Assembly (NCBI GenBank): GCA_038204725.1
Contig: JBBRCQ010000003.1
Coordinates: 84,148 to 148,147 of the forward strand
Source: Bacteroidales bacterium
GTDB lineage: Bacteria > Bacteroidota > Bacteroidia > Bacteroidales > JACABE01
DNA length: 64,000 nucleotides
Direction of reading: 5' to 3'
How positions within the stretch are numbered: the first letter of the stretch is position 1; each line of letters opens with the position of its first letter. This document shows positions 1 to 60,273 of this stretch, in pieces. Below the pieces are notes generated by a model, which saw only the letters and a list, made by a program, of their open reading frames with translations, did no database searches and was not told the DNA's origin. Both the position numbers and the translations under genes were made by a program.

Positions 1-352
1 GGCTTTCAAATAAGCGATCCTGGTTTAAGGGTTTGGTCATAAAATCAAATACAAAGTGATCGAAGCTATCACCGGCATATTTACGATGGGCAGTTATAAT
101 AATTACTTTAGTTTTGGAACAGTCGATATATTTTAACAATTGGAAACCATTTAAATGGGGCATATCGATGTCCAAAAAAATAAAATCAGGATTCATTTCA
201 TTCACTTTATCTACGCCGCTTATCACATCCAGACAATTATCAATACACTGAAATCCAACATGAATCTTCATTAAATCGCGAAGGTAATCAATGGAAAGAT
301 AATCATCATCTATAATGATGTAAGTATACGTTTTGGATTTTATTTTTCTCAT
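1..352 (-). CDS. Response regulator receiver domain (LytTR/AlgR-like), runs off the window edge
   Basis: Not in the ORF track. Manual translation from ATG at 352: MRKIKSKTYTYIIIDDDYLSIDYL...PDFIFLDIDMPHLNGFQLL...VIIITAHRKYAGDSF...DFMTKP. It has the acidic pocket DD, the phospho-Asp in LDIDMP, the conserved T and KP. TATATTTG box on the minus strand at 384-391. Confidence 0.85.
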   Translation of the reverse strand, partial: MRKIKSKTYTYIIIDDDYLSIDYLRDLMKIHVGFQCIDNCLDVISGVDKVNEMNPDFIFLDIDMPHLNGFQLLKYIDCSKTKVIIITAHRKYAGDSFDHFVFDFMTKPLNQDRLFES

Positions 353-752
353 TTCAATGCATATTGTATTTGCAATTTCAATGCAAATATAAAAAGAATA
401 GTTAATATTTGGTGACAAAAGGGGGATATAAATACATCTTTCTATGATACGGTTTGTTCCTATCGATATTACAGTATCTAGTTTTTTTTGTGTAGTATAA
501 ACTGTATAAGTGGATTTTAAGTATTAATTATTTGTGTTTTTCAAGATAATGTTCCAAAAAACCTTTGGCATCTTCGATGGAGATGTGTTTGGCAATAATT
601 TTGAAGTTTAAATTGATAAGGAATCAAATTTTTATTTTACAAACTTAAATAGTATCGATGTTGTCGTACCAAAGAATAATATGATATATTGTACCACTGC
701 AAAATATCAGATATTCAAAATGGACACATAGCTAGATTTTCAAATAAGCACA

Positions 753-1880
753 CTATCTATATATTTCTTTATTCAGTTTGTTTACTTTTCTTTTATTTAC
801 AACAAAACCGGTTTCTTTGGTGTAAGTACCACATTCTTCCACAGCCACATAGCCTTCTTCTCCTTTCCATTTAGCAATGTAGGGGTTGTAATGGCATTTG
901 GCAGGCTGTGAGTAAATATTATCCGGATCTTTTATGAATGCACGGCAATCGGTACATATATGGCGAAATTCACAATCTTTGCACACATCTATTTTATCCT
1001 TACAGATAAACCACAAATCCTTAAAGCCTGGCTTTTCCATAGCTTCTTTTAAAGTTGTATCTTTAATATTTCCAAAACTTTGTTGCATGCTCGGGCAGTT
1101 CTTTATTTCGCCATCTGCATCTATGCAGATTTTACGGTTAAGGCAGGTATTGTGGAGCTGGGATTCGGTGAAAAGAGGGAAATACACAGAAAAATATCTT
1201 TTGTCAATTACACCACATGTATTTTTACACATTAAATAATCAATTACTTCCAAATTACAATTTAATTTCACCTTTTTTACTGTATTATTTTGAGGTTTAA
1301 ATAGTACAATATCTTTTATTATTTCTAATTTATTAATAGCTTCAAATACAATAATTTCATTAAAGTCAATGTAATTATTATTTATATAAATGCTAACTGT
1401 TTTTACTTTTGAACTTTTTAATATATCTATTATCTTTAAAAATGTGTTTTTTGAAATGGGATTTAAAAATTCAAAAAGCAAATGGGGACAATTCAGTTCA
1501 TTAAATTGGATTATAGCTAATTCTAATGAAAAAATTGATTTATCTGAAAATTCGATAATTCCATTTGAAACATTACTTGGGAAATCCCAATGGAGCGACA
1601 TGGGAGGGAAAAACTTTTTTTCTGAATTTGAAATAAAAGTCGCATATTGATTAGATACCAGTAAGTCAACATATTCCGTAATTATTTTGGAATAATCCTT
1701 ATATTTAATTTGTAAATCATTAATCGAAACCCTTTTACATTCATATACAAAGTCAATTAAAGAATTCGGAATATTCTCAATTTTACTTCTTTGTAAATCC
1801 ATCAGTAATCCCTGTTTATAACCTTTAGTTAAAAAACAGGTAGAAAAAAAATGAAGATATTTATTATTAGTTTCTACCAT
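753..1880 (-). CDS. gwsS: Grasp-with-SPASM system SPASM-domain peptide maturase (module 1)
   Basis: N-terminal F..C...KG.....DLQR. C-terminal SPASM Cys pattern NTCLNRKICID..GEIKNCPSM...VCKDCEFRHICTDCR...KC. No CxxxCxxC. Adjacent to an ATP-grasp gene; matches my recollection of TIGR04193. Confidence 0.9.
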   Translation of the reverse strand: MVETNNKYLHFFSTCFLTKGYKQGLLMDLQRSKIENIPNSLIDFVYECKRVSINDLQIKYKDYSKIITEYVDLLVSNQYATFISNSEKKFFPPMSLHWDFPSNVSNGIIEFSDKSIFSLELAIIQFNELNCPHLLFEFLNPISKNTFLKIIDILKSSKVKTVSIYINNNYIDFNEIIVFEAINKLEIIKDIVLFKPQNNTVKKVKLNCNLEVIDYLMCKNTCGVIDKRYFSVYFPLFTESQLHNTCLNRKICIDADGEIKNCPSMQQSFGNIKDTTLKEAMEKPGFKDLWFICKDKIDVCKDCEFRHICTDCRAFIKDPDNIYSQPAKCHYNPYIAKWKGEEGYVAVEECGTYTKETGFVVNKRKVNKLNKEIYR

Positions 1881-2041
1881 CTCTTTATTTTACATATTGG
1901 TTTAAATAATAGTCGTACTATCTGATTATTTGTTTGAACTTTATCATTATTATCTTTTTGTGCTATTACTACTTTGTCATCCTCAAAATATCTGTAATTG
2001 AAAGGGAATAGTTTTAATTCAGTCTTTCTTAGAAAACGCAT
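1874..2041 (-). CDS. Small 55-aa ORF between ATP-grasp and SPASM genes (module 1)
   Basis: Below the track cutoff. MRFLRKTELKLFPFNYRYFEDDKVVIAQKDNNDKVQTNNQIVRLLFKPICKIKRW*. Fills the intergenic gap, its stop overlaps the gwsS start (ATGGTAG), and it is syntenic with 7205-7420. Confidence 0.6.
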   Translation of the reverse strand: MRFLRKTELKLFPFNYRYFEDDKVVIAQKDNNDKVQTNNQIVRLLFKPICKIKRW

Positions 2042-2056
2042 TATTTAAAATATATG

Positions 2057-3028
2057 TTAATTGATTGTTGAATATTTTGTAAGATTATTTGCAATTGTTC
2101 GTTCAATATAATAATTACAGCGAACACTCACATAATCAAATTGTCCCGCAGGATTGAGTTCTAAAAAAACGAAATCATTACCGTCATAGATTAAATCAAT
2201 TGAAGCACTTTCTAAGCCGATGTTTTTTAATAACTTTTTCAATTTTGTAATTATTTGAATTGGAAGATTAAAAGGAACCATTCTCGTTGAAAATGCATCA
2301 CCATCCCTTATATCAGTTATATTTTTGTCAATTGGGAATATAGCCATTGAAAAAATATTTTTTTGAAAAACGAAAGATCTAATCTCTATTTCCCTGTTTA
2401 TCTGATGTTGAAATAATGAATAATAAAATTCATCATCATTTTTAATAGCTTCTCTTTGCATGCTTCTAACGCATAAATCAAATAAATACTTTTCATTTTT
2501 ACGCCTAAAAACATCTTTAATAGTTTTTGTAATAATACGATTAGTAAGTGTAATATCTTCAGCTTTTTTACATATTACAGTTTCCGGAATTTTTAAACCT
2601 ATTTTAATCGCTTGTTGTAATACAATTAATTTATTTGAATTGTATTTTCTCATATCGTTGATATGATTTTTGGTAACAATAAATTCTCCAATAAAATCGA
2701 AAAGAGAATGTCTTTCTTCAGATAATTGGTGGTGAAACAATTTCTTTGCTTCAATTGGTATTTTTTTGTTTAAATAGGCAGATGGCGGTGGTGGTATAAT
2801 ATTAAAAAAGCCTCTTCTACACCATATAATTTTAAAATCAATAATATTATACAATTGATTATTGTATTCAAAAAAAACATCAATTTGTTGATTCGTAATA
2901 TTTATTTTTTGAATGATATTAGTACTCCATTCCTCGTCTAATCTTAAATAAGGGGTATTATAAAAATCTAACCATTCGCATACTTTATCGGTAGAGACAT
3001 CTCTTTGTTCACTCAAAATTAATATCAT
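2057..3028 (-). CDS. gwsG: Grasp-with-SPASM system ATP-grasp peptide maturase (module 1)
   Basis: MILILS...D.ST..VCEWL N-terminus; NKL..LQ.A...GL.IPET; SLFQ..I...EIR; FLELNPAGQFD. MvdD/RimK-like ATP-grasp fold. Confidence 0.9.
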   Translation of the reverse strand: MILILSEQRDVSTDKVCEWLDFYNTPYLRLDEEWSTNIIQKINITNQQIDVFFEYNNQLYNIIDFKIIWCRRGFFNIIPPPPSAYLNKKIPIEAKKLFHHQLSEERHSLFDFIGEFIVTKNHINDMRKYNSNKLIVLQQAIKIGLKIPETVICKKAEDITLTNRIITKTIKDVFRRKNEKYLFDLCVRSMQREAIKNDDEFYYSLFQHQINREIEIRSFVFQKNIFSMAIFPIDKNITDIRDGDAFSTRMVPFNLPIQIITKLKKLLKNIGLESASIDLIYDGNDFVFLELNPAGQFDYVSVRCNYYIERTIANNLTKYSTIN

Positions 3029-4179
3029 TTGTTGTATAATTTTATATCTTTCTCATTATACTTTTTTATTATTTTTTCTTGCTCTGCTTTATATTCATTT
3101 ATCATTGCTTCCGTTGCATTTTCTTCAATATCCATAAAGCTATTGCTATAGAATATGAAATCATTATTAAAATTTATTACTTTTTGTCGAAACTTCCACA
3201 GGCTTTTGTCTTGTTCTTCTTGAAATGAACACAAATAAATTTTTTCCCTTCTTTCGTTTACTTCTTTTTCTTGTTTTTTTGAAGGTTGAAATACCAATAA
3301 TTTATCGTAAAGTGTAAATCCATTTGAAGATCCTAAAAAGCCACCTCTATATTGACTAAATAATTTACTATATTCGGTATTAAAACATCGATCTATTAAT
3401 CTTGCATATACCTTATTATCCATTGTTCCATTACAAAGCTGTGCTTTTAAATACTTTAGCCACCTAATATCATGCCAGGCGGTTGAATGTATGATTAAAA
3501 CTTCCAGTATGCTTTCTGCATTTGCTGCATTTCTTCCAGTAATTTCTCCGTATTTTTCCCATAAGGCAATCAGCTTTATCATATTTATGGAATCTACAGC
3601 TCTGATGGTATCAGCAAAAGGAGTTTTGTAGAGCATTGGTTGAGTGTATTTAGCAATGCCTTCTCTTCTTATTTTTTGATCGGCTTCTTCTATACTTTCA
3701 AGTGCATCACTTAAACTATCAACTTTAAGATATTCAATTTTAACGGTATCAAAAATTTTGGGGAGACTTTTCCAATATTGCATTTTTGTTAAATCAGGAT
3801 AAGAATCAGCATATACTTCCAATTTTTCAGCTACATCAATTGGCTTGTGCCCAATTTTAAGTTTCAAAATAAGATAATTTATAATTGTAGCAGAATCTTT
3901 TGCAGATAAGCATTCTGCTACTAATGCTCTATGTAAATCAATGAGAAAAGGCTCTTTGTACTTAAATGCTTTTGAATAACACAGAGATGCTTTACGATAG
4001 TTCCCTTTAGTAATTTGTATTTCTGCTTTGTTTACATTGGTATAATATTCTTTTACACCTGATTTAAAATCCATTCCATCAAGATAAATGCTTTCAGGTG
4101 TTTTCGTTTGTGATATGCCTAATAATGGTACTGTCAAAATAAAAACGATATTTAGAAATAAATTTCTTAGGTTTTTCAT
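3025..4179 (-). CDS. Secreted hypothetical protein, DUF6624-like
   Basis: Signal peptide; motifs DQKIR, DSIN...KYG, YARLIDR and NERREKI resemble DUF6624 proteins; 4-nt overlap with the gwsG start. Confidence 0.6.
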   Translation of the reverse strand: MKNLRNLFLNIVFILTVPLLGISQTKTPESIYLDGMDFKSGVKEYYTNVNKAEIQITKGNYRKASLCYSKAFKYKEPFLIDLHRALVAECLSAKDSATIINYLILKLKIGHKPIDVAEKLEVYADSYPDLTKMQYWKSLPKIFDTVKIEYLKVDSLSDALESIEEADQKIRREGIAKYTQPMLYKTPFADTIRAVDSINMIKLIALWEKYGEITGRNAANAESILEVLIIHSTAWHDIRWLKYLKAQLCNGTMDNKVYARLIDRCFNTEYSKLFSQYRGGFLGSSNGFTLYDKLLVFQPSKKQEKEVNERREKIYLCSFQEEQDKSLWKFRQKVINFNNDFIFYSNSFMDIEENATEAMINEYKAEQEKIIKKYNEKDIKLYNK

Positions 4180-4183
4180 ATTG

Positions 4184-5275
4184 TTATGGTTTTATTGTAA
4201 TTTCTATTTTGTTGATTTTCATTTGTTCTGATAAAGATAATTTAGCTGTTGCCGGATACATTTCATCTTTCCCAATATACAATATCCGAGTAGCACTTAT
4301 TCCATATTCTATCAGATAATTAGCAATTGCTTGAGCTCTTTGCTTTGACAATATGTTATTTTCTTGATTTTTGATGGTGTAACAATTAATTTCAATGCTT
4401 TTCTTCGGATTGATTTTTAAAAAGTTAAATAAAATATCCAATGTATAAATTGATTTAGTTTCAAATTCTGGTTCATTCTCTTTAAAATAAATGCCTTCCA
4501 AAACAAAAGGTTTATTTACAGATTGCAAATCTTTTGAAAGCATATTTTCATAAGGCGTTAAAAAAAGATTATCAATATAGAATTGACAAATGCCCTCCCA
4601 AATTTTAGGATTGTGTTGACCTAAATCTTTAAAATTTCCAATAAGCAAGTAACTATAATCCATCGTTGGGATAAAGTAGGCAGTAAATTTAGTCCATTGT
4701 TTTATTGGTGTCGAATCATTTAATTTAATGCTGATGAATGGATTTAAGGTGATTTTATTTTTATATAGGTTGTACATAAAAGGTATGTCAAAAGAGTTTT
4801 TCGTTCTAAAAACGACACCAAAGTCTGCTTGATTAATAAGAAATGGATCTGCTACTTCTTCTTCTATTTTATTTGCATCTACCCTGTAATACATTTCAAA
4901 ATAATATACAACCCCTTTCATAATTGGCTGTTTTAGTTTTGCTTGCACCACGTTCTTATATTTACAGCCCAAACTTCGCATGTAACAATTTCCTTCATAA
5001 GGATAGATTGGATTAAAACTTACATCTTTATGATAATTCAACCTTGATTTAATAGATGGAATCAAGGTTTTATCAATATGCATACCCGTCCATGGTCCAT
5101 ATTGCCCCCGTGGTTGTATCCAATCCCAATCTTTTGCTCTGAAATATTTCCCGGATGTATCGTAAGTTTTTATTTCTTTTTCTTCAAATCCGGCGTTTGG
5201 GATAAGGTTTTGGGCTTTAAGGAATTGTATACTCCAACACAAAATTAATAATAACAGCCAATTTTTTTTTATCAT
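4184..5275 (-). CDS. Secreted protein with N-terminal beta-sandwich (QNLIPNAGFE) and C-terminal OmpA-like domain
   Basis: Start moved to MIKKNWLLLLILCWSIQFLKA (signal peptide). C-terminal LEGIYF...IEINCYT...NNILSKQRAQAIANYL..GI..TRI...G is an OmpA_C-like domain with a degenerate GHTD motif. Confidence 0.75.
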   Translation of the reverse strand: MIKKNWLLLLILCWSIQFLKAQNLIPNAGFEEKEIKTYDTSGKYFRAKDWDWIQPRGQYGPWTGMHIDKTLIPSIKSRLNYHKDVSFNPIYPYEGNCYMRSLGCKYKNVVQAKLKQPIMKGVVYYFEMYYRVDANKIEEEVADPFLINQADFGVVFRTKNSFDIPFMYNLYKNKITLNPFISIKLNDSTPIKQWTKFTAYFIPTMDYSYLLIGNFKDLGQHNPKIWEGICQFYIDNLFLTPYENMLSKDLQSVNKPFVLEGIYFKENEPEFETKSIYTLDILFNFLKINPKKSIEINCYTIKNQENNILSKQRAQAIANYLIEYGISATRILYIGKDEMYPATAKLSLSEQMKINKIEITIKP

Positions 5276-5296
5276 GGAATTTAATATATTATGTAT

Positions 5297-5328
5297 TAAA
5301 AGGCAGATTCCAATAAATCTGCCTTTTA
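5297..5328. terminator. Stem-loop directly downstream of precursor 1
   Basis: TAAAAGGCAGATT (5297-5309) / AATCTGCCTTTTA (5316-5328): perfect 13-bp inverted repeat. Confidence 0.7.
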
Positions 5329-5343
5329 TTAATAACCGAACGA

Positions 5344-5565
5344 TTATTCGTAGTACCATTTAACTGATTGTACAAACCAGCCACCTTCACCATCGGCCCA
5401 TTCGTGTACTGTATCCCCAGTGCTAGGATGATCAAATTTATCTGTTGTATATGTAGTAGCTCTGTCTTGTAATGTACCACGAACTGGATTTCTCCCTCCC
5501 ACCAATTCACTCATTTGTTCAGTTTCTAATTGATTTACTTTATTAATGGATTCTAGTTTTTTCAT
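5344..5565 (-). CDS. RiPP precursor peptide 1 (double-glycine leader)
   Basis: Leader MKKLESINKVNQLETEQMSELVGG, then a 49-aa core rich in T/S/K donors, D/E acceptors and W/Y/F. First gene of the ATP-grasp/SPASM operon. Confidence 0.88.
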   Translation of the reverse strand: MKKLESINKVNQLETEQMSELVGGRNPVRGTLQDRATTYTTDKFDHPSTGDTVHEWADGEGGWFVQSVKWYYE

Positions 5566-5701
5566 TATTATAATTTTTATTTATTAAACTTAAATTTCCA
5601 CTTTCACAGGAATTATGCACTTTGCATAAGAACCATCGCTTAAAATTTTCTTTCCCATCGGATTTTTAAGAAACCGGAAAATGTTGCAAAATTTATGTAT
5701 G

Positions 5702-5812
5702 TTTGCAACGCCTCCTTTATATACTTAAATACATGTCTCGTCTGGCACTTTTAAGTGGATTTTACGCCGCTGCAAACTTTAAAGGAGGTCTTTGCAGCGG
5801 CTTTTTTATTTG
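5702..5812. ncRNA. Conserved structured non-coding element, copy 1 (candidate cis-regulatory RNA or sRNA)
   Basis: 107/111 identical to 10046-10156. 11-bp stem GCCGCTGCAAA/TTTGCAGCGGC followed by T6. Loop TAAAGGAGG is complementary to the 5' CCTCCTTTA. Inner stem ACTTAAA/TTTAAGT. Confidence 0.7.
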
Positions 5813-5866
5813 GCTTTCATCGTTTATTATATTAATTTTTATGATTTTTATTTATAATTTCCATTG

Positions 5867-5874
5867 CAAATCTA
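5867..5874 (-). promoter_or_regulatory. Bacteroidota sigma-A -7 box for module 1
   Basis: TAGATTTG on the minus strand matches TAnnTTTG and would place the conserved element in the precursor 5' UTR. No clear -33 box. Confidence 0.45.
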
Positions 5875-6072
5875 TGTTAAAAAAGCAAACATTTTACATC
5901 GGGTTTTGAGTTGGTGACGTAGCAGTGATGAAAAAAAATAAAATTCGACTTAAACTGCTCAGCCCCTTGGATGAACGTAAAAAAAATAAAATGAAAAAAT
6001 GAAAAAATAAATGACTTGGGATTTTTTAATAATCAAAATCATTTAATTTGAACTGTTGAATGCATATTCAAG

Positions 6073-7221
6073 CTAGCTATTGATTCCCTGGTCTCCCCAT
6101 ATCTGTTTATTGAGTTTGTTTACTTTTCGTTTATTAACCACAAAGCCTGTTTCTGTATTGCTGCCACATTCTTCCACAGCTACATAACCTTCTTCGCCTT
6201 GCCATTTGGCAATGTAGGGGTTGTAATTGCATTTGGCAGGTTGTGAATACATATTTTCGGAGTCTTTAATAAAAGCACGACAATCGGTACATATATGGCG
6301 AAACTCACAATCTTTACACACATCTATTTTATCCTTACAGATAAACCACATATCTTTAAATCCGGGTTTCTCCATGGCTTCTTTTAAAGTTGTATCTTTT
6401 ATATTACCAAAGCTAAGGCTCATGCTCGGGCAGTTCTTTATTTCGCCATCGGCATCAATACAGATTTTACGGTTAAGACAAGTATTGTGGAGTTGGGATT
6501 CGGTGAAAAGACATGATTCTACTGAAAAGTATAATTTAGAGATATATCCATGACAACTGCTATTTTCATCTATTTTCCCTTTTACAAAAAGGAAATTACA
6601 AACAGGATCTGTCAAAGGAATTTTTCTAAAAAACGGAGCGGAAAATACGATAACAGAACCTATTCTAGGATATCTTTTTACTAGTAAAATTAATTCTTCT
6701 ACATTAATATTCTCGGTGTATTTTATATATAAGTCAATATATTTTATGGGTGTTCCCTCAAACAAATCACCTAACAGATTTATTTCTGAAAGTAAAAATT
6801 CAGTAAAAATTTTAATTTGCAAATTATCACATCTCAAATCGACCAATTCCATAATAATATGTGGTGAGAAATTGTGAATGTCTTTAATATCAATTATTGC
6901 ATTTGAAATGACAGCCGGATAATCCCAAGCTTTACTTAAAGCCGGGAAAAATTTTAATTCATTACTCGTACATGTAAATAACATTTCATTCTTTTCAAGG
7001 AAGGAAAAATAATTGTCTATAATTTCATTATTTTCACTATTATAAACTTGCTTTATTTCTTTTAAAGTTTTATTGGAATTTTTCTTAATAATATCATGTA
7101 GAATATTAGGAATAAAAACACTGATATCTCTTTGAAAATCACAAATCAATGATCTTCTATACCCTTTTACTATTTCGCAACATGCAAACATCTTAAAATT
7201 ATCTTTATCTTTCATTATCAA
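6073..7221 (-). CDS. gwsS: Grasp-with-SPASM system SPASM-domain peptide maturase (module 2)
   Basis: FACCEIVKGYRRSLICDFQR N-terminus; same SPASM Cys pattern; C-terminal ~138 aa differ from 753-1880 at ~12 positions; no CxxxCxxC. Confidence 0.9.
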   Translation of the reverse strand: MIMKDKDNFKMFACCEIVKGYRRSLICDFQRDISVFIPNILHDIIKKNSNKTLKEIKQVYNSENNEIIDNYFSFLEKNEMLFTCTSNELKFFPALSKAWDYPAVISNAIIDIKDIHNFSPHIIMELVDLRCDNLQIKIFTEFLLSEINLLGDLFEGTPIKYIDLYIKYTENINVEELILLVKRYPRIGSVIVFSAPFFRKIPLTDPVCNFLFVKGKIDENSSCHGYISKLYFSVESCLFTESQLHNTCLNRKICIDADGEIKNCPSMSLSFGNIKDTTLKEAMEKPGFKDMWFICKDKIDVCKDCEFRHICTDCRAFIKDSENMYSQPAKCNYNPYIAKWQGEEGYVAVEECGSNTETGFVVNKRKVNKLNKQIWGDQGINS

Positions 7222-7420
7222 CGTCTAATGATTTAGAGATTAATTTATAAAACCCCATCATCGTAAATTTATCAGTATCTAACATATTAACTTGAAATGG
7301 TATTCTTGATACTTTTTTACCCAAGCTTTTTTTACCAGATTTTAAGTAATAAAATAACAATGGAATATCTAATCCTTGTTCTTTCAGCTTCCTTCTTAAA
7401 AAAATCTCTTTTTTATTCAT
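7205..7420 (-). CDS. Small 71-aa ORF between ATP-grasp and SPASM genes (module 2)
   Basis: Overlaps both neighbours (translational coupling); basic, with IPLLFYYL and RIPFQ segments. Confidence 0.7.
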   Translation of the reverse strand: MNKKEIFLRRKLKEQGLDIPLLFYYLKSGKKSLGKKVSRIPFQVNMLDTDKFTMMGFYKLISKSLDVDNER

Positions 7421-8369
7421 GGTCGTTTTTTATTAAGAATTTTGCAATGTCTTTTTCGATAAAATAATTACAATATTTTGAAACAAAGTCAAATTGACCA
7501 ACAGGGTTAACCTCCAGAAAAACAAATTTATGGTCGGTAGTATAAATAAAATCCAATGAACCTGTATTCAATTGATACAAATCCATAAACTTTTTGATTT
7601 GTTTCTTTAAATGAGTGGGTAATGAGAAAGGTACACTTCTGTTAGGCTTTTCTTTATTGTAGTTTCTAAGATCAATTTTTGTCTTTTTATCTTTTTGCGA
7701 AAAAATAGCCATTGCAAACATTTTGCCATCCAAATAGAACACCCTGATTTCGTATCTTTTCTCAATCGCGTTTTGAACAAATGAAGGGAAAAGAGTTGTA
7801 TCTTCATTCTGTAATTTCTTTAAATCTACTAATTCAGTATAACATCCATAATTATTCGTTTCAACAGAAAACGGAAAACCTGGACTCAGTACTTTTGTTA
7901 TTAATTTGCTTTTTGATTCTTTCTCCAATAAATGAATATTCGTGATTACACTTGAATTAGGAATTAATAAGCCTGCTTTCTTTGCCAATTCAAGTGCTTG
8001 AAGTTTATTCGCATTTCCATTAAAAAAACTACCCAATGATTTTTTTGTTTCAAATTGAAAATGAATAAAATCAATAATGGTTTCAGTTTCTTTTAATAAC
8101 ATTTTATTAATATCAGAATATCCTGAATAAACATTAAAATAAAAACGAATCAAGTACCTGCGCATCCAACATACATAAATATCTATACTTGATGTCAATA
8201 CTTTGTTTAAATAAAATATTAATTCTGTTTTTTCATTATTAACAATTAACTCATACCATTTTAAATATGTATTGTCGTTTATGATAATGTATTTTACATC
8301 CCATAATTCGAGCCACCTTACTACTTCATAAGTGCTTATATCATTTTGGTCTGTTACAATAAGAATCAT
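7413..8369 (-). CDS. gwsG: Grasp-with-SPASM system ATP-grasp peptide maturase (module 2)
   Basis: MILIVT..ND.ST..V..WL; ANKLQALELAKKAGLLIP; FPSFVQ..IEKRYEIR; FLEVNPVGQFD. Confidence 0.92.
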   Translation of the reverse strand: MILIVTDQNDISTYEVVRWLELWDVKYIIINDNTYLKWYELIVNNEKTELIFYLNKVLTSSIDIYVCWMRRYLIRFYFNVYSGYSDINKMLLKETETIIDFIHFQFETKKSLGSFFNGNANKLQALELAKKAGLLIPNSSVITNIHLLEKESKSKLITKVLSPGFPFSVETNNYGCYTELVDLKKLQNEDTTLFPSFVQNAIEKRYEIRVFYLDGKMFAMAIFSQKDKKTKIDLRNYNKEKPNRSVPFSLPTHLKKQIKKFMDLYQLNTGSLDFIYTTDHKFVFLEVNPVGQFDFVSKYCNYFIEKDIAKFLIKNDHE

Positions 8370-8370
8370 A

Positions 8371-9615
8371 TTATTTTATTTCAATTTCAACAAATTCGCT
8401 TTTTGTTATTCCTTTTAATTCAATGGTATAGCTTCCTTTTTTAAGGAGCAATGGCTTTTTCTCTTTCTTGTTGTTCAATTGGATTACGTCAAAGGGTACC
8501 GCTTTTGAGATATCTTCGCCTTTACAATAAGCTTTTGCCAAGATTGGATATTGAATTTTGTGCTTTTTAGCATCAATATAATAAGGGATTCTATCTAATT
8601 GGTACAACCAATCCGGTCTTTCGTTACTATATTTAGTACGTGGGTGGAAGACTTGTATATCAATTGCATCTAAAAGATATTCATTTTTAAAACTATTATT
8701 CTTTTCATCAATAAAAACAAAAGGTTTATCCACATTGGCTAATTGAAAATAACGGTTTTCGATAGCGGTATCACTTCTTTCTGTCATTCTATCCTGGTCA
8801 ATGGCTAATGGACGGTTTTCTCGTCCTAAAAAATGCCAAAGATAGCTGCCCATCGAATAGCTATCCCATTTTCTTGATATATGCCCTAAACCTGCAAAAA
8901 GGATAACTCTTGCTCCAGTATCGGCTTTAAATATTTTCATTACGTTAAAAGCCTGACGAATTTCTCTTTCCATGCATTGTCCCTCATCAGCATGATTAAC
9001 GAGTTTCTCGTTATAAGGCACTACTCCTTTATCAAAGTCCATCTCATAAGAAAAAACAAAAAATCCTATTTTCATGGCTTCTCTTGCAACATTGCCCATT
9101 AAAGGTTCTGTAAGTAACCACGCATTGTAATTTAATAACGGATAACCTCTATTGTTTAACAATGAATCATAATGTAATGCCTCCATTCCCAAATACTTAA
9201 ACCCTTGGTTATACAATTTCTGTAGTAAAGAAATCATATAAGCCCGTTGCTGAGGCATATTATGACTTTCGTTTATCATAATCATCTTCTTATTTTTCGC
9301 CCTTTTGAGAATGTATTCGGTGGCATCAACGGCTTTGTAATTTGATACAAATGCAGCAGAATCGGCAGAAGATAAACTTTCTTTTTTTGTATTATCATAT
9401 ATTTCATCCATTGTTTTTATCGCTTGCTGGTATTCTCCAATAAATGTAAAATAAAAAGACTGCATATTTTTAATACTCCAATCAGACATTGAAGAATCTT
9501 TGAAACAAAGAATAGTATCTTTTAAATAATATGCAGGAGGTGGGATTTGTGCATTATTTATTATAAAAGTTAATAGTAAGAGTATTGTAAAACAAGTTTT
9601 TATTATTATTTTCAT
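8371..9615 (-). CDS. Secreted protein, putative EreA/ChaN/TIKI-superfamily hydrolase-like
   Basis: Signal peptide; ordered motifs INESH, YLGMEAL, REIRQA and LFAGLGHI resemble the xExH / xE / R / GxxH pattern of that superfamily (recognised by eye). Confidence 0.5.
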   Translation of the reverse strand: MKIIIKTCFTILLLLTFIINNAQIPPPAYYLKDTILCFKDSSMSDWSIKNMQSFYFTFIGEYQQAIKTMDEIYDNTKKESLSSADSAAFVSNYKAVDATEYILKRAKNKKMIMINESHNMPQQRAYMISLLQKLYNQGFKYLGMEALHYDSLLNNRGYPLLNYNAWLLTEPLMGNVAREAMKIGFFVFSYEMDFDKGVVPYNEKLVNHADEGQCMEREIRQAFNVMKIFKADTGARVILFAGLGHISRKWDSYSMGSYLWHFLGRENRPLAIDQDRMTERSDTAIENRYFQLANVDKPFVFIDEKNNSFKNEYLLDAIDIQVFHPRTKYSNERPDWLYQLDRIPYYIDAKKHKIQYPILAKAYCKGEDISKAVPFDVIQLNNKKEKKPLLLKKGSYTIELKGITKSEFVEIEIK

Positions 9616-9629
9616 AGAATTATAATTGT

Positions 9630-9667
9630 AAAAAATAAGGAAGTATTAAAAATCTTCCTTATTTTTT
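9630..9667. terminator. Stem-loop directly downstream of precursor 2
   Basis: AAAAAATAAGGAAG (9630-9643) / CTTCCTTATTTTTT (9654-9667): perfect inverted repeat with T tails on both strands. Confidence 0.75.
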
Positions 9668-9695
9668 GGAAAATTGCTATTTAGTTGATTTATTA

Positions 9696-9959
9696 CTAAG
9701 ATATAGTGTCAGGACATATCTTTTGATTTTCAGGTCTTACGTTTGCCCAATCTCCTTTATTGTCAGTTTCGCTTTCTCTTGCCCAAATTTTTCCATTGTC
9801 GGTATATTGTGCAGCAGTATGTGTAACTCCATCTGTTTGAGTTGAAGTACCACAACCTTGCTCTGAGTTTGTTCCACCTAATATTAAATTCAAATTTGTA
9901 ATTTCACTTTGATTTAATATACCAAAAGTATTGCTGTTTATTTCTTCGAATTTTTTCAT
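9696..9959 (-). CDS. RiPP precursor peptide 2 (double-glycine leader)
   Basis: Leader MKKFEEINSNTFGILNQSEITNLNLILGG, then a T/S/D/E-rich core with 2 Cys and 2 Trp. First gene of module 2. Confidence 0.88.
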   Translation of the reverse strand: MKKFEEINSNTFGILNQSEITNLNLILGGTNSEQGCGTSTQTDGVTHTAAQYTDNGKIWARESETDNKGDWANVRPENQKICPDTIS

Positions 9960-10045
9960 TTTTATAAAATTTAATTGTTTATACTTTTTTTTTACTTGTA
10001 GTTAGGAAATTATTGAAACTTGAAGTAAAACCTAACTAATAAAAT

Positions 10046-10156
10046 TTTGCAACGCCTCCTTTATATACTTAAATAAATGTCTCGTCTGGCAATTTTAAGT
10101 GGATTCAACGCCGCTGCAAACTTTAAAGGAGGTCTTTGCAGCGGCTTTTTTATTTG
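10046..10156. ncRNA. Conserved structured non-coding element, copy 2
   Basis: Direct repeat of 5702-5812 with 4 substitutions, all outside the predicted stems; 86 nt upstream of the precursor 2 start. Confidence 0.7.
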
Positions 10157-10447
10157 AAACGCATTGTATTCCTTCTATTTTTGTTATTTTGATTGAACTG
10201 TAACAAAAGATATTTTTGTTTTTTTTCTTACTTATTCAAATCATCACAAACTAAATCCAACTCCATTTATATTCTATTTTCAACCTTATTCTAAGACTAA
10301 ATTTCTTACACCTTCTCATTTTATGTAATTTCAATAAATGCTGAAAGCAAGAATAGGAAATTTAAGCACCCATTTTATTTTAAATTACAATACAAATGTA
10401 ATTTACCACACTGACAATTTTTGTCAGTCAGTAAATTATTTTTATAA

Positions 10448-10582
10448 TTTAACAAAATTGTATCCTTAGCTTTTGATAAAAACCCGTATTTGCTTTTTAT
10501 AGCTATCGAAATGCCTGGGATGAAAGGAAAGGAATTATTTGACGTCATTGATCCATCGATAATCGTCATCCATTTTTGCTGA
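10448..10582 (+). pseudogene. Decayed response-regulator receiver-domain fragment
   Basis: Frame reads KNPYLLFIAIEMPGMKGKELF, matching the (K)PDLLFLDIEMPGMNGxEL consensus with the phospho-Asp lost; bounded by stops. Confidence 0.6.
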
Positions 10583-52988: not shown

Positions 52989-53067
52989 TGTACTGCATAA
53001 GGGCTCGAACCTCCTTCTTCAGAATCCATGCATGAATCCTGATGCTCTTCCGTTGAGCTACTGCAGT
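52989..53067 (-). ncRNA. tRNA-like element or pseudo-tRNA with extended anticodon arm
   Basis: ACTGCA/TGCAGT acceptor stem, D-arm TAGCTCAACGGAAGAGCA, T-arm GAGG-TTCGAGC-CCTT; the anticodon region is a 10-bp stem with a 4-nt loop. Confidence 0.7.
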
Positions 53068-58401: not shown

Positions 58402-58647
58402 AATGTTAATTATTTAGTTGATTGATAGAATTATTTAATTATACAATACCAGTTTATCTGTTGAAAAGTGGTTGATATGTTATTGTTTGCAAATATAACT
58501 TAATTTATCATAAAAAGTTCAAATATTTTAACATTATTTCCAACAGTAAAAATACGCTTAAATTTTACTCCCCACAAATGAATATTTTACTCATATTCAG
58601 TCTATAAAAAACCACTAAAAAAAATGTATCTTGAAAAAAAGATAGCT

Positions 58648-60273
58648 TTAATGAGATTCAATGGGTTTAAATCCTCTCACAAAACTTAACAACAAAAGTA
58701 AAAACCCTGAAAATAATGCGATTCTTCCGATGTAATCACCATATTTTACATAAAAAGTCAATTCGGTATTGGCATGAAGTGTTTGACGGATTACGGCGGG
58801 TTGCCAGTAAGATGTTTGCTGCAAAATATCACCTCTTTGGTTGACAAAACACGAAATTCCTGTATTAGCAGATCTTGCAATATCTCTGCGGGTTTCAACT
58901 GCACGCAATGCAGCATAGCTAAAGTGTTGGCGATGTCCGGCAGTATTACCCCACCAACCATCGTTGGTAATGATAAAGATAAGTGAAGCCCCGTTTTTTA
59001 CAAAATCTGCAACAAAACCACCATAAACAGATTCATAACAAATAACAGGACTCCCATTGAATCCATTTTCGGAATTAAATACTTTTCTAACCTCATCAAC
59101 ACCAAGACTACCCACAGTACCACCCAGATCGAGGGCTAATTTTTCAATAGGTTTGATGAATTTTTTAAATGGCATTTTTTCAACACCGGGTGTTAATCTG
59201 GATTTATGATAGCAGTCCAATTTTCCTGAATGATCCACAAACAATGCAGTGTTATAGGATTCGTAAAACCTACCCTTTTCATAAGGATATTCACGAGCCG
59301 CCAATGTGAGCGGCGCGTCCTTTGCTAACATTTGTCTGGTGGAAATACCTGCAACAACAGCTACACGGGGATATTTATTTGTAAAAGCTCTAAGCATAAA
59401 CACACTCGGTGATGCATCCAACTGGTCTTCCCAGGCATATTCCTGCAATGCACTTTCTGGGAAAAGCACAAAGTTCACATTGCTGTCTGTTTTGCTTTCG
59501 GCCAGTACCAGCATGCGTTGCAGAATTTCTACTGGAGGAGTTGTATATTGTTCGGAATACGGATCTACATTCGGTTGAACTGCTACAACTTCCACAGCTT
59601 TCCCTTTTTCCTGATAGCAATGGTAAGTGATCAGTGAAAAAACCAAAGGGATTGTAAAAATTATAAAACAAGCAAAGCTGTTGAAAAAAAACTTATTTTT
59701 AAGATGAAATAAAAACCGGTCTTTGTTTTTGAAATGCAATATGATTTCAAACAATAAAATATTGATCATCAAAACCCACAAAGTTCCGCCAAAAGTGCCA
59801 GTATATTCATACCATTGTATCATCTCTGGATAAGCGGCGAAAACATTGCCAACTGTTAACCAAGGCCAGGTTAAATCCCAGTTCATGTGGAAGTATTCAA
59901 ATGCTATCCAATACAATACCAGCGCCATATAGGCTTTCCCTTTTTTAAAGACTACTTTGCGTGAATAATGGTAAAAATTAAACACGATGGTCATCATAAA
60001 AGTGTTGAGCAACAATGCAAAAATAGCACCTATCACCGTAGAATTCCATATCCAGTAAGTAGTAAGTGCATTCCAGGTGAAAAAACCAACAAAAACGATG
60101 AAGAAAAAGCTAAACTTCCCGTGTTTAATTGGATCTTTTGATATAATATCTTCTATCCAAAGTATTGGAATAAACGCGAAAAAGATGAGCCAGGCAAAAC
60201 CATTCAATGGCCAGGCAGCCGCCAGCAAGATACCTGAAAGTAAAGAGAGAAGAAGAAGTTTGTATTTTTGCAT
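58648..60273 (-). CDS. lnt: Apolipoprotein N-acyltransferase
   Basis: TM N-terminus, WPW..GN, VQPN, FPES (E), YHK (K), ICYES (C), ITNDGWW, RAVE.RR..RSANTGIS. Confidence 0.93.
   Translation of the reverse strand: MQKYKLLLLSLLSGILLAAAWPLNGFAWLIFFAFIPILWIEDIISKDPIKHGKFSFFFIVFVGFFTWNALTTYWIWNSTVIGAIFALLLNTFMMTIVFNFYHYSRKVVFKKGKAYMALVLYWIAFEYFHMNWDLTWPWLTVGNVFAAYPEMIQWYEYTGTFGGTLWVLMINILLFEIILHFKNKDRFLFHLKNKFFFNSFACFIIFTIPLVFSLITYHCYQEKGKAVEVVAVQPNVDPYSEQYTTPPVEILQRMLVLAESKTDSNVNFVLFPESALQEYAWEDQLDASPSVFMLRAFTNKYPRVAVVAGISTRQMLAKDAPLTLAAREYPYEKGRFYESYNTALFVDHSGKLDCYHKSRLTPGVEKMPFKKFIKPIEKLALDLGGTVGSLGVDEVRKVFNSENGFNGSPVICYESVYGGFVADFVKNGASLIFIITNDGWWGNTAGHRQHFSYAALRAVETRRDIARSANTGISCFVNQRGDILQQTSYWQPAVIRQTLHANTELTFYVKYGDYIGRIALFSGFLLLLLSFVRGFKPIESH

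Follow-up and report, generated by a model that had tools for sequence, protein, structure and literature searches.

A conserved structured non-coding module before modified-peptide and other secreted-protein operons of Bacteroidales, probably a small antisense RNA with a long regulatory leader

Introduction

Why should two copies of a short non-coding sequence be nearly identical when the DNA on either side of them cannot be aligned? The question arises in a stretch of 64,000 nucleotides from a Bacteroidales bacterium (GenBank assembly GCA_038204725.1, contig JBBRCQ010000003.1, positions 84,148 to 148,147 of the forward strand), which we call the window and by whose numbering all positions are given. 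A 111-bp element stands there twice, each time upstream of a gene cluster for a ribosomally synthesized and post-translationally modified peptide (RiPP). A first reading of the letters by themselves, hereafter the sequence-only reading, took the element for a structured RNA: either a small RNA (sRNA) antisense to the 5' untranslated region of the precursor gene, or a leader switch controlling RiPP expression.

In this paper we ask what the element is. We conclude that the repeat forms the core of a non-coding module that is real, conserved and structured and that, as far as we have found, has not been described before. The module is wider in its context, which takes in secreted products generally, and richer in its anatomy, which involves two strands, a very short open reading frame (ORF) and a second leader, than the sequence-only reading held. 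It stands before modified-peptide and other secreted-protein operons, where it probably combines a small antisense RNA with a long regulatory leader. We found no earlier description of the element in searches of the literature on grasp-with-spasm systems, Bacteroidota small RNAs, RiPPs and antisense RNA, supplements aside.

Results

The repeat and its fold

Copy 1 (5702-5812) and copy 2 (10046-10156) align without gaps and are identical at 107 of 111 positions (96.4%). Their flanks are unalignable except for a short conserved CAT 6-8 nucleotides (nt) beyond, so the identity amid divergent surroundings that had been claimed is confirmed. The four substitutions (5732, 5748, 5762 and 5763) are all unpaired in the minimum-free-energy fold and, as had been supposed, lie outside the stems. 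On the plus strand the arms ACTTAAA and TTTAAGT (5723-5729 and 5750-5756) surround TGTC-TCGTCT-GGCA; an 11-bp stem (5766-5776/5791-5801 in copy 1) and six Ts (5802-5807) come after them. The 14-nt loop of this second stem contains TAAAGGAGG (5780-5788), the exact complement of CCTCCTTTA (5711-5719). Each of the stems, the loop, the complementarity and the TAnnTTTG boxes described in the sequence-only reading is thus present where it was placed.

Read as RNA, the plus strand folds at -30.1 kcal/mol, with z-scores of -3.8 for copy 1 and -4.0 for copy 2, and none of 200 shuffled sequences equals it. The minus strand folds at -24.2 kcal/mol (z-scores of -2.4 and -2.2, respectively), so that the plus-strand fold is the more stable by 6 kcal/mol. 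Both the repeat and the stability of its fold are far beyond chance.

Distribution of the element

The element recurs in other Bacteroidales genomes. By BLAST it is present in 8 of 61 genomes of relatives, counting the genome of the window (G000). A gapped pattern scan over one genome per species returned 29 stretches, of which 21 are the element by inspection and the other eight are unrelated terminator-like matches in other phyla. We also built a covariance model, R1, from 24 distinct sequences. Within the GTDB family, 8 of 17 genomes carry a match to R1; across the order, 4 of 151 sampled genomes do, all four from uncultured lineages. In three genomes reached by way of individual loci the model counts 11, 1 and 1 copies, the 11 belonging to a complete chromosome (G166). 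Over the window and 24 fetched loci R1 gives 29 matches, whose rows include 27 distinct ones, and 15 metagenome stretches hold six more. The total is therefore 35 copies, at 1-11 per genome, all from uncultured Bacteroidales: their sources are metagenome-assembled genomes (MAGs), contigs of metagenomes and a single complete chromosome. Record titles name the hosts as uncultured Bacteroidales or Bacteroidota MAGs from lakes, groundwater and similar sources, and the complete chromosome is of 4.18 Mb. The nearest relatives of a copy are the other copies in its own genome, irrespective of the gene that it faces.

G000 has three full copies, the third on its contig C34. On contig C33 of the same genome (about 4869-4889, minus strand) there is a truncated fourth copy, consisting of the leader, the promoter and the first ~20 nt of the RNA; unrelated sequence follows, and there is no intact divergent gene.

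At gathering threshold the only match of Rfam 15 in the whole window is a tRNA at 52991-53067 (minus strand). Between 5600 and 5900, searched at E<=10, the best matches are RF00242 (24.3 of 56 bits, E 0.39) and RF02278 (17.8 of 50 bits), both below their gathering scores. The element stands, as first proposed, as a conserved structured non-coding RNA, and it has no Rfam match.

Covariation between the 5' tail and the terminator loop

A helix of 9-12 bp between the 5' tail of the plus-strand RNA and the loop of its last hairpin is backed by compensatory changes at several positions. To count pairs on the R1 alignment we entered this helix as a pseudoknot. On the alignment so annotated 92.8% of cells are paired, compared with 90.0 +/- 0.4 in shuffles, and the covariation score is 0.094, compared with 0.061; none of 500 shuffles reaches either value, and partners slid out of register are 30-52% paired. 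Both partners have changed at 5 of 11 pairs of the tail:loop helix, at 3 of 11 of the terminator and at 0 of 7 in the base of stem-loop 1. The R1 alignment misplaces a 4-nt insertion in seven rows, and the helix was re-registered by a script over positions -5 to +4. The 26 distinct tail/loop combinations then comprise 230 Watson-Crick pairs, 11 G.U, 5 A.C and 14 others. That is, 241 cells are paired, whereas swapping loops among copies gives 232.7 +/- 1.9 (0 of 2000 trials reach the observed count), and the wobbles that fit the plus strand number 11 against 5 A.C mismatches, which would be wobbles on the minus strand.

The majority form of tail and loop is CCUCCUUUA/UAAAGGAGG. Among its variants are AUCUCCUUUA/UAAAGGAGAU, GCCUUCUUUA/UAAAGAAGGC and ACUCCUUUA/UAAAGGAGU, and one and two positions further 5' there are several G-C, A-U and G.U variants. 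The pairing is broken by U x U or C x U in the L036/L122 lineage and by A x G in L038 (L numbers denote loci), and two copies, L108b and partly L110, have decayed. The helix extends up to the nucleotides that directly follow the promoter, consistent with transcription beginning there. The loop leaves a margin of 1-3 nt on one side, so that full helix and full stem may coexist only with fraying. By pair counts and loop swaps, then, the proposed pairing of the tail CCUCCUUUA with the terminator loop is real. Its proposed extension by TGCAA/TTGCA into an antiterminator helix is not borne out, as this extension falls within the promoter, 5' of the point where transcription probably begins.

The tail is similar to the anti-Shine-Dalgarno sequence expected at the 16S 3' end, a region that was sought in the MAG and not found. 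Bacteroidota seldom use Shine-Dalgarno pairing.

A predicted small RNA gene on the plus strand

The motif TAnnTTTG, presumably the -7 promoter consensus of Bacteroidota, stands in exact form 3-4 nt (once 7 nt) before the start of the model in 23 of 29 copies. At the other end, a GC-rich terminal stem of 9-11 bp is followed across the copies by a T-run, which is TTTTTT in most and which overlaps a stop codon on the minus strand. In between, the top of stem-loop 1 varies in sequence while the spacer between its arms keeps to 18-24 nt, mostly 21-23. The start of the predicted sRNA in copy 1 is set by the -7 box and its end by the U-run (Table 1). Among public sequencing runs, those listed as containing this stretch are DNA runs of one sediment study, one of which may be its source; no RNA run was listed. 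A scan for promoters and terminators called neither the boxes nor the hairpin and is uninformative: its promoter consensus was TTGACA/TATAAT, and the 14-nt loop of the hairpin exceeds the 8 nt that it allows.

We considered a small ORF on the plus strand and rejected it, since the ATG frames differ between copies, stop early in L039 and the G166 copies, and are thus not conserved, and since the spacer of 18-24 nt does not change in steps of three.

Two further observations belong here. At 5683-5709 an AT-rich palindrome, GTTGCAAA-N11-TTTGCAAC, comprises the sRNA -7 box and a near-consensus box on the opposite strand; it might be a proximal second promoter of the operon, an RNA hairpin or a site bound by protein. 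On contig C17 of G000 (about 58633-58720, plus strand) lies a further candidate sRNA of ~70 nt, with the same TAATTTTGCAA box, which R1 does not match; its 5' end is rich in pyrimidines and pairs with a 3' arm, rich in purines, that immediately precedes a U-run.

The opposite strand: promoter boxes, a mini-ORF and a structured leader

All genes around the two window copies are on the minus strand, and the plus-strand RNA is directed away from the RiPP genes. This orientation leaves the idea of a plus-strand leader switch for RiPP expression unsupported. Three features had escaped the sequence-only reading: a structured leader, a mini-ORF and a link to LytTR regulators.

The inward-facing minus-strand box noted at copy 1 recurs: within 150 nt of the terminator, such a TAnnTTTG is found in 18 of 31 distinct flanks, against a mean of 2.4 and a maximum of 8 in shuffles, and for comparison the plus-strand motif is found in 8 of 31. 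At copy 2 and at C34 the box lies farther out and adjoins a common hairpin block. The hairpin, ACTGACA-N5-TGTCAGT, is at 10401-10440 (plus strand) in the window, next to the minus-strand -7 box, and is also seen in L031, L033, L035 and L037.

Between these boxes and the hairpin the minus strand carries a mini-ORF, that is, ATG, one to four sense codons and a stop, ending 3-4 nt before the hairpin. We find it in 25 of 31 distinct flanks, where 2000 shuffles give a mean of 2.5 and a maximum of 8, and under looser limits in 27 of 31. Its start and stop are kept as the codons between them drift, and at least 12 peptides are encoded, among them MKAK, MRFK, MRFR, MLFK, MNNK, MKFK, MNIK, MNTK, MKTLE, MKMLE, MKLLE and MK. 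The conservation of ~20 nt past the plus-strand U-run is explained by this mini-ORF. Taken as sequence signals, the minus-strand boxes and the mini-ORF imply a putative transcript of the opposite strand.

On the far side of the sRNA promoter that transcript would run into the structured leader. In copy 1 its parts come in the order P1 hairpin, partner of the P1 loop (AUUUUAAG), GCGAUGGUUC and P2 hairpin, and a GUGAAAGUGGAAA block precedes the ATG by ~29 nt. The stem of P1 changes and yet stays paired (CAGG/CCUG, AGGC/GCCU, AGGU/ACCU, CGG/CCG, UCAC/GUGA). Its loop, UUCUUAAAAUA, pairs with the downstream AUUUUAAG, with compensatory changes in L038 and L031 and G.U pairs in the mRNA sense in L101/L102. 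P2 is variable and has a U-rich tail, and the CUGCGAGAGUGGAAA-type (GUGGAAA) block lies 26-31 nt before the ATG. The leader was delineated by inspection of 15 sequences and by pattern search; a MAFFT alignment was too rough at P1. A strict pattern for it gives seven matches in two of five genomes, all beside copies of the element, and the reversed pattern used as a control gives none. In G000 the last block is present only at C34, with up to three mismatches allowed, and the leader of copy 2 (9960-10045) is mostly lost, a degenerate version remaining. Readings of the leader blocks as sigma-54 or extracytoplasmic-function (ECF) promoters were dropped by eye because of their variable spacing of 32-39 nt.

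Table 1. Features of the element and its surroundings, with positions in the window; systems at other loci are given without coordinates.
Feature	Position	Strand	Remarks
-7 box TATGTTTG (TAnnTTTG), copy 1	5698..5705	+	exact box in the same place in 23 of 29 copies
Predicted sRNA, copy 1, ~97-99 nt	5709..5807	+	R1 111.5 bits, E 6e-21; fold
5' tail GCCUCCUUUA, partner of terminator loop	5710..5719	+	helix kept through compensatory changes
Stem-loop 1, invariant ACUUAAA/UUUAAGU base and variable inner hairpin	5722..5757	+	fold, alignment
Terminator-like hairpin, 11 bp, with U6	5766..5807	+	14-nt loop with UAAAGGAGGU at 5780-5789
Mini-ORF, copy 1, ATG AAA GCC AAA TAA (MKAK)	5806..5820	-	stop 4 nt before hairpin
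-7 box TAGATTTG, candidate distal promoter of long operon leader	5867..5874	-	faces the element
Structured 5' leader of precursor operon, copy 1	5593..5678	-	covariation between loci
Counterpart of -7 box, copy 2, AAATTTTG	10042..10049	+	one mismatch to TAnnTTTG
Predicted sRNA, copy 2	10053..10151	+	R1 110.4 bits; fold -30.1 kcal/mol, z -4.0
Terminator-like hairpin, copy 2	10110..10145	+	U-run 10146-10151
Mini-ORF, copy 2, ATG CGT TTC AAA TAA (MRFK)	10150..10164	-	TAA 4 nt before hairpin
-7 box TACATTTG, copy 2	10393..10400	-	beside hairpin ACTGACA-N5-TGTCAGT
GG-leader RiPP precursor 1, 73 amino acids (aa)	5344..5565	-	first gene of grasp-with-spasm cluster 1, 753-5565
GG-leader RiPP precursor 2, 87 aa	9696..9959	-	first gene of grasp-with-spasm cluster 2, 6073-9959
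LytTR response-regulator remnant	10460..10570	+	tblastn 59% over 37 aa to residues 43-79 of L032 regulator
Grasp-with-spasm clusters			window (two), L035, L041, L102, L106
TIGR04148 radical-SAM system			L033
Other radical-SAM/SPASM maturases			L031, L037, L111
LanC-like with thiopeptide-type dehydratase			L101

Genes faced by the element

Upstream DNA is readable in 31 copies, and each of these faces a divergent gene whose start lies 37-196 nt away, always in the same orientation; four further copies are at contig ends. The genes faced are 11 GG-leader RiPP precursors and 20 whose N-termini resemble signal peptides or lipoproteins, signal peptides and lipoboxes having been judged by eye from the N-termini. 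Two of these 20 have the Pfam domain Por_Secre_tail, which marks sorting by the type IX secretion system (T9SS). Thus the specificity for RiPP genes that the sequence-only reading had assumed is unsupported, because 20 of the 31 readable copies face other secreted-protein genes.

The fixed position and orientation at gene starts, in 31 of 31 readable copies, led us to reject a miniature inverted-repeat transposable element (MITE) or repetitive extragenic palindrome (REP). The boundaries of the copies vary by locus, from 111 bp in the window to ~2.3 kb in G166, and inspection, the only means used here, found no terminal inverted repeats or target duplications at them. In one case the duplicated block takes in the leader together with the first four codons. 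On the complete chromosome (loci L099-L108) the ~2.3-kb repeat unit starts at the sRNA promoter. This unit has ~800 nt at ~75% identity with a minus-strand ORF of ~92 aa, a repetitive tail, and a convergent gene of 308 aa with a C-terminal CarboxypepD_reg domain, at 91-96% nucleotide and 95.7-99.7% protein identity.

On the other side of the element, 6 of 35 copies are followed by a LytTR response-regulator gene that reads in the same direction and starts ~270 nt past the U-run in L032, L034, L036, L038 and L039a and farther away in L111. Convergent genes follow copy 1, L035 and 8 of the 11 G166 copies. In the window itself a LytTR-type regulator lies at the far end of cluster 1 (1-418, minus strand) and runs off the window (tblastn C3:83771-84481).

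Both window clusters have TIGR04192 ATP-grasp and TIGR04193 SPASM maturases downstream, and precursor 1 matches TIGR04149 weakly (E 0.0012). The clusters stand in tandem at 753-9959 (minus strand); their precursors are very different, and their maturases are 30% (ATP-grasp) and 50% (SPASM) identical.

Discussion

The reading we prefer

We favour, at about an even chance, a ~97-nt countertranscript opposite the long, mini-ORF-bearing leader of a secreted-product operon. The 111-bp repeat would be a plus-strand gene for a structured RNA of that length, with its own -7 promoter and an intrinsic terminator, whose 5' tail pairs with its own terminator loop in a pseudoknot-like closure of 9-12 bp. 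This gene would be embedded in a larger module heading operons for exported products, namely GG-leader RiPP precursors, lipoproteins and T9SS proteins. A minus-strand promoter beyond the sRNA terminator would start the long operon leader, in which a mini-ORF of 2-5 codons would first be translated, ending 3-4 nt before the same hairpin. From there the leader would run antisense through the sRNA gene and into the P1 loop pairing and the P2 hairpin with its U-rich tail, before the first gene. The sRNA may lower expression of the operon, either by pairing with the leader or through interference between convergent transcription. It may act on sibling loci as well, since the copies within one genome are alike. 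The needs of a plus-strand sRNA and those of a minus-strand leader overlap across the element, which makes a sense/antisense pair the most economical account. Of the two alternatives originally offered, an sRNA antisense to the precursor 5' untranslated region is the best reading, given the recurrence of the inward minus-strand -7 boxes.

Several points weigh against this reading. We infer the transcription of either strand, the direction of regulation and any action in trans from sequence. A proximal minus-strand promoter may stand back-to-back with the sRNA promoter, and were it the only one, the antisense overlap would be gone. Six of the 29 copies, copy 2 among them, have no exact -7 box but one-mismatch or weaker forms. 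The T-run is partly accounted for by a minus-strand lysine codon, the stop and an A-rich spacer, and the base of stem-loop 1, lacking covariation, could equally be a protein-binding or DNA site. Because the copies are related, the compensatory changes amount to a handful of independent events: about three in the core of the helix (UCUCC/GGAGA, CCUUC/GAAGG and ACUCC/GGAGU) and further ones at its ends. In the G166 copies the top pair of the terminator is C x A on the plus strand and U.G on the minus strand, which favours a minus-strand hairpin there. Finally, when duplexes between the sRNA and that part of its leader which lies outside the overlap were predicted without restriction over 22 loci, a procedure that yielded long spurious duplexes, cognate pairs did no better than non-cognate or shuffled ones.

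Other explanations

Four rival explanations together take about half of the probability. In the first, which we consider possible but rather doubtful, the minus strand alone would be functional. The element would then be a cis-acting segment of the leader, with no sRNA, and would work by attenuation in the style of a leader peptide: translation of the mini-ORF would remodel the pairing of the CCUCCUUUA loop with UAAAGGAGG, together with P1 and P2, while the promoter and terminator motifs of the plus strand would have arisen incidentally from an AT-rich palindrome and an A-rich spacer. The mini-ORF in 25 of 31 flanks and the inward -7 boxes in 18 of 31 speak for such a mechanism, as do the covariation of the leader with its G.U pairs in the mRNA sense, the U.G at the top of the G166 stem, and the ~20 conserved nucleotides past the U-run, explicable by the minus strand only. 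It does not, however, account for an exact TAnnTTTG at a fixed distance in 23 of 29 copies, or for an uninterrupted T-run behind a GC-rich stem, and the mini-ORF needs none of the spacer As. The wobbles of the tail:loop helix (11 against 5) and the 6 kcal/mol of extra stability also favour the plus strand, and in none of the copies read does a start codon follow the purine-rich stretch. The element might instead be an sRNA acting through a trans seed, for which FopS of Bacteroides is a precedent (PMC11697453). Here the 5' CCUCCUUUA tail would target purine-rich sites near the start codons of unlinked mRNAs, the loop pairing would mask or stabilise the seed, and adjacency to the operon would reflect shared transcriptional control, for instance by LytTR regulators. 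The element indeed has a single-stranded pyrimidine tail at its 5' end, a -7 promoter, a terminator-like hairpin and several copies per genome. A LytTR regulator follows 6 of 35 copies; copy 2 is followed by the remnant of one, and a further such gene lies at window positions 1-418. But the seed differs between sibling copies together with its loop partner, which would be unexpected of a common trans seed. When AAAGGAG was sought across G000 at 2-21 nt upstream of ORFs (50 aa or longer, in place of gene calls), the 144 matches were mixed and had no theme. With the mini-ORF and the minus-strand boxes left unexplained too, we regard this as unlikely.

The folds could also be incidental to function at the DNA level, in a portable bidirectional promoter/operator cassette or a MITE-like repeat, whose palindromes CTTAAA-N20-TTTAAG (present twice) and TTGCAAAATTA-N3-TAATTTTGCAA would bind a regulator such as a LytTR protein. 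The invariant arms of stem-loop 1 with their near-constant spacer (18-24 nt, mostly 21-23) speak for an operator, the same half-sites reappear in the leader, and the cassette has been duplicated before unrelated genes in one genome, once with the first four codons. Against this stand the compensatory changes and wobbles in three helices, which argue for RNA, and the leader's CTTAAA/TTTAAG spacer, which grows from ~20 to ~66 nt in L035 and L037. Nor does a mobile repeat sit well with locus-variable boundaries lacking terminal inverted repeats and target duplications, or with a single position and orientation in 31 of 31 copies, and on balance a DNA-level element is very unlikely. We see a smaller chance still that the plus strand is a leader or attenuator of the downstream LytTR regulator, in which tail:loop pairing would tune termination and read-through. 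A co-directional regulator does begin ~270 nt past the U-run in five loci and farther in L111, and copy 2 is followed by a remnant. But such a gene follows only 6 of 35 copies besides that one remnant, and copy 1, L035 and 8 of 11 G166 copies have convergent genes next.

One bolder version of the sense/antisense pair deserves mention, though we judge it quite improbable. The module might be a two-strand RNA switch of a hitherto undescribed type, in which a ribosome on the mini-ORF opens a hairpin that mimics a Shine-Dalgarno/anti-Shine-Dalgarno pair, and a countertranscript with the mirror duplex competes, making the switch bistable and coupled between copies. Perhaps peptide sensing through LytTR regulators feeds it and turns on a set of RiPP/bacteriocin and secreted-protein operons.

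Significance

Most of what is known about regulation by RNA in Bacteroidota comes from a handful of Bacteroides species of the gut. If our preferred reading is true, the module would add a covariation-supported RNA family from uncultured Bacteroidales of freshwater, groundwater and sediment, in the form of a compact and apparently portable regulatory cassette. It would also provide a sequence marker for RiPP and secreted-protein operons in metagenomes, where its copies point to grasp-with-spasm, radical-SAM and lanthipeptide-like clusters and also to secreted proteins that lack annotation. Moreover, control by sense/antisense pairing and a mini-ORF would become testable in a phylum with unusual translation initiation.

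Comparison with known systems

Antisense RNA, or sRNA with leader control, is an already known type of regulation, and we compare the module with its nearest counterparts. The closest precedent within the order is FopS. FopS and GibS are multicopy sRNAs of Bacteroides thetaiotaomicron, with 14 copies and a 5' seed (PMC11697453). Judged by that description, the element shares with them paralogous copies within Bacteroidales genomes (up to 11 here, 14 there), a sigma-A-type promoter, a single-stranded 5' pairing region, a hairpin predicted to be a terminator and a link to surface or exported functions. The comparison is by description, and the likeness is one of working, not of membership. Unlike FopS as described there, the element has its 5' tail paired to the terminator loop, keeps a fixed place next to one operon, and carries a mini-ORF and a leader on the opposing strand.

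In shape the element also resembles the ctRNA_pT181 family (RF00242), with two hairpins of which the last would act as a terminator. It is not a member, however, scoring 24.3 bits against a gathering score of 56 (E 0.39), and it is chromosomal, whereas the family serves plasmid replication control. On the minus strand one is reminded of attenuation of the ermC/cat type, where a very short ORF precedes a hairpin in which a CCUCC-type strand hides an AGGAGG-type strand. Here too a very short ORF ends just before a hairpin with such a strand pair. Unlike in ermC and cat, no start codon follows the element's purine-rich strand, and the ORF has just 2-5 codons.

For the mechanism we propose, the closest precedent is, by analogy, the prgQ/prgX region of pCF10. 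There, according to PMC3181467, convergent promoters 223 nt apart yield the small RNA Anti-Q; this raises termination in the leader of an operon that encodes a small exported peptide as its first product. As far as that account goes, the predicted arrangement is alike in its convergent promoters one to two hundred nucleotides apart, its ~100-nt structured RNA antisense to a leader, its small exported peptide as first product and its terminator-like leader hairpin. It differs in belonging to another phylum, in having neither homology nor a PrgX-like repressor gene, and in being known from sequence alone. We assign the element to neither the FopS nor the pCF10 family, and what it would share with each is a way of working.

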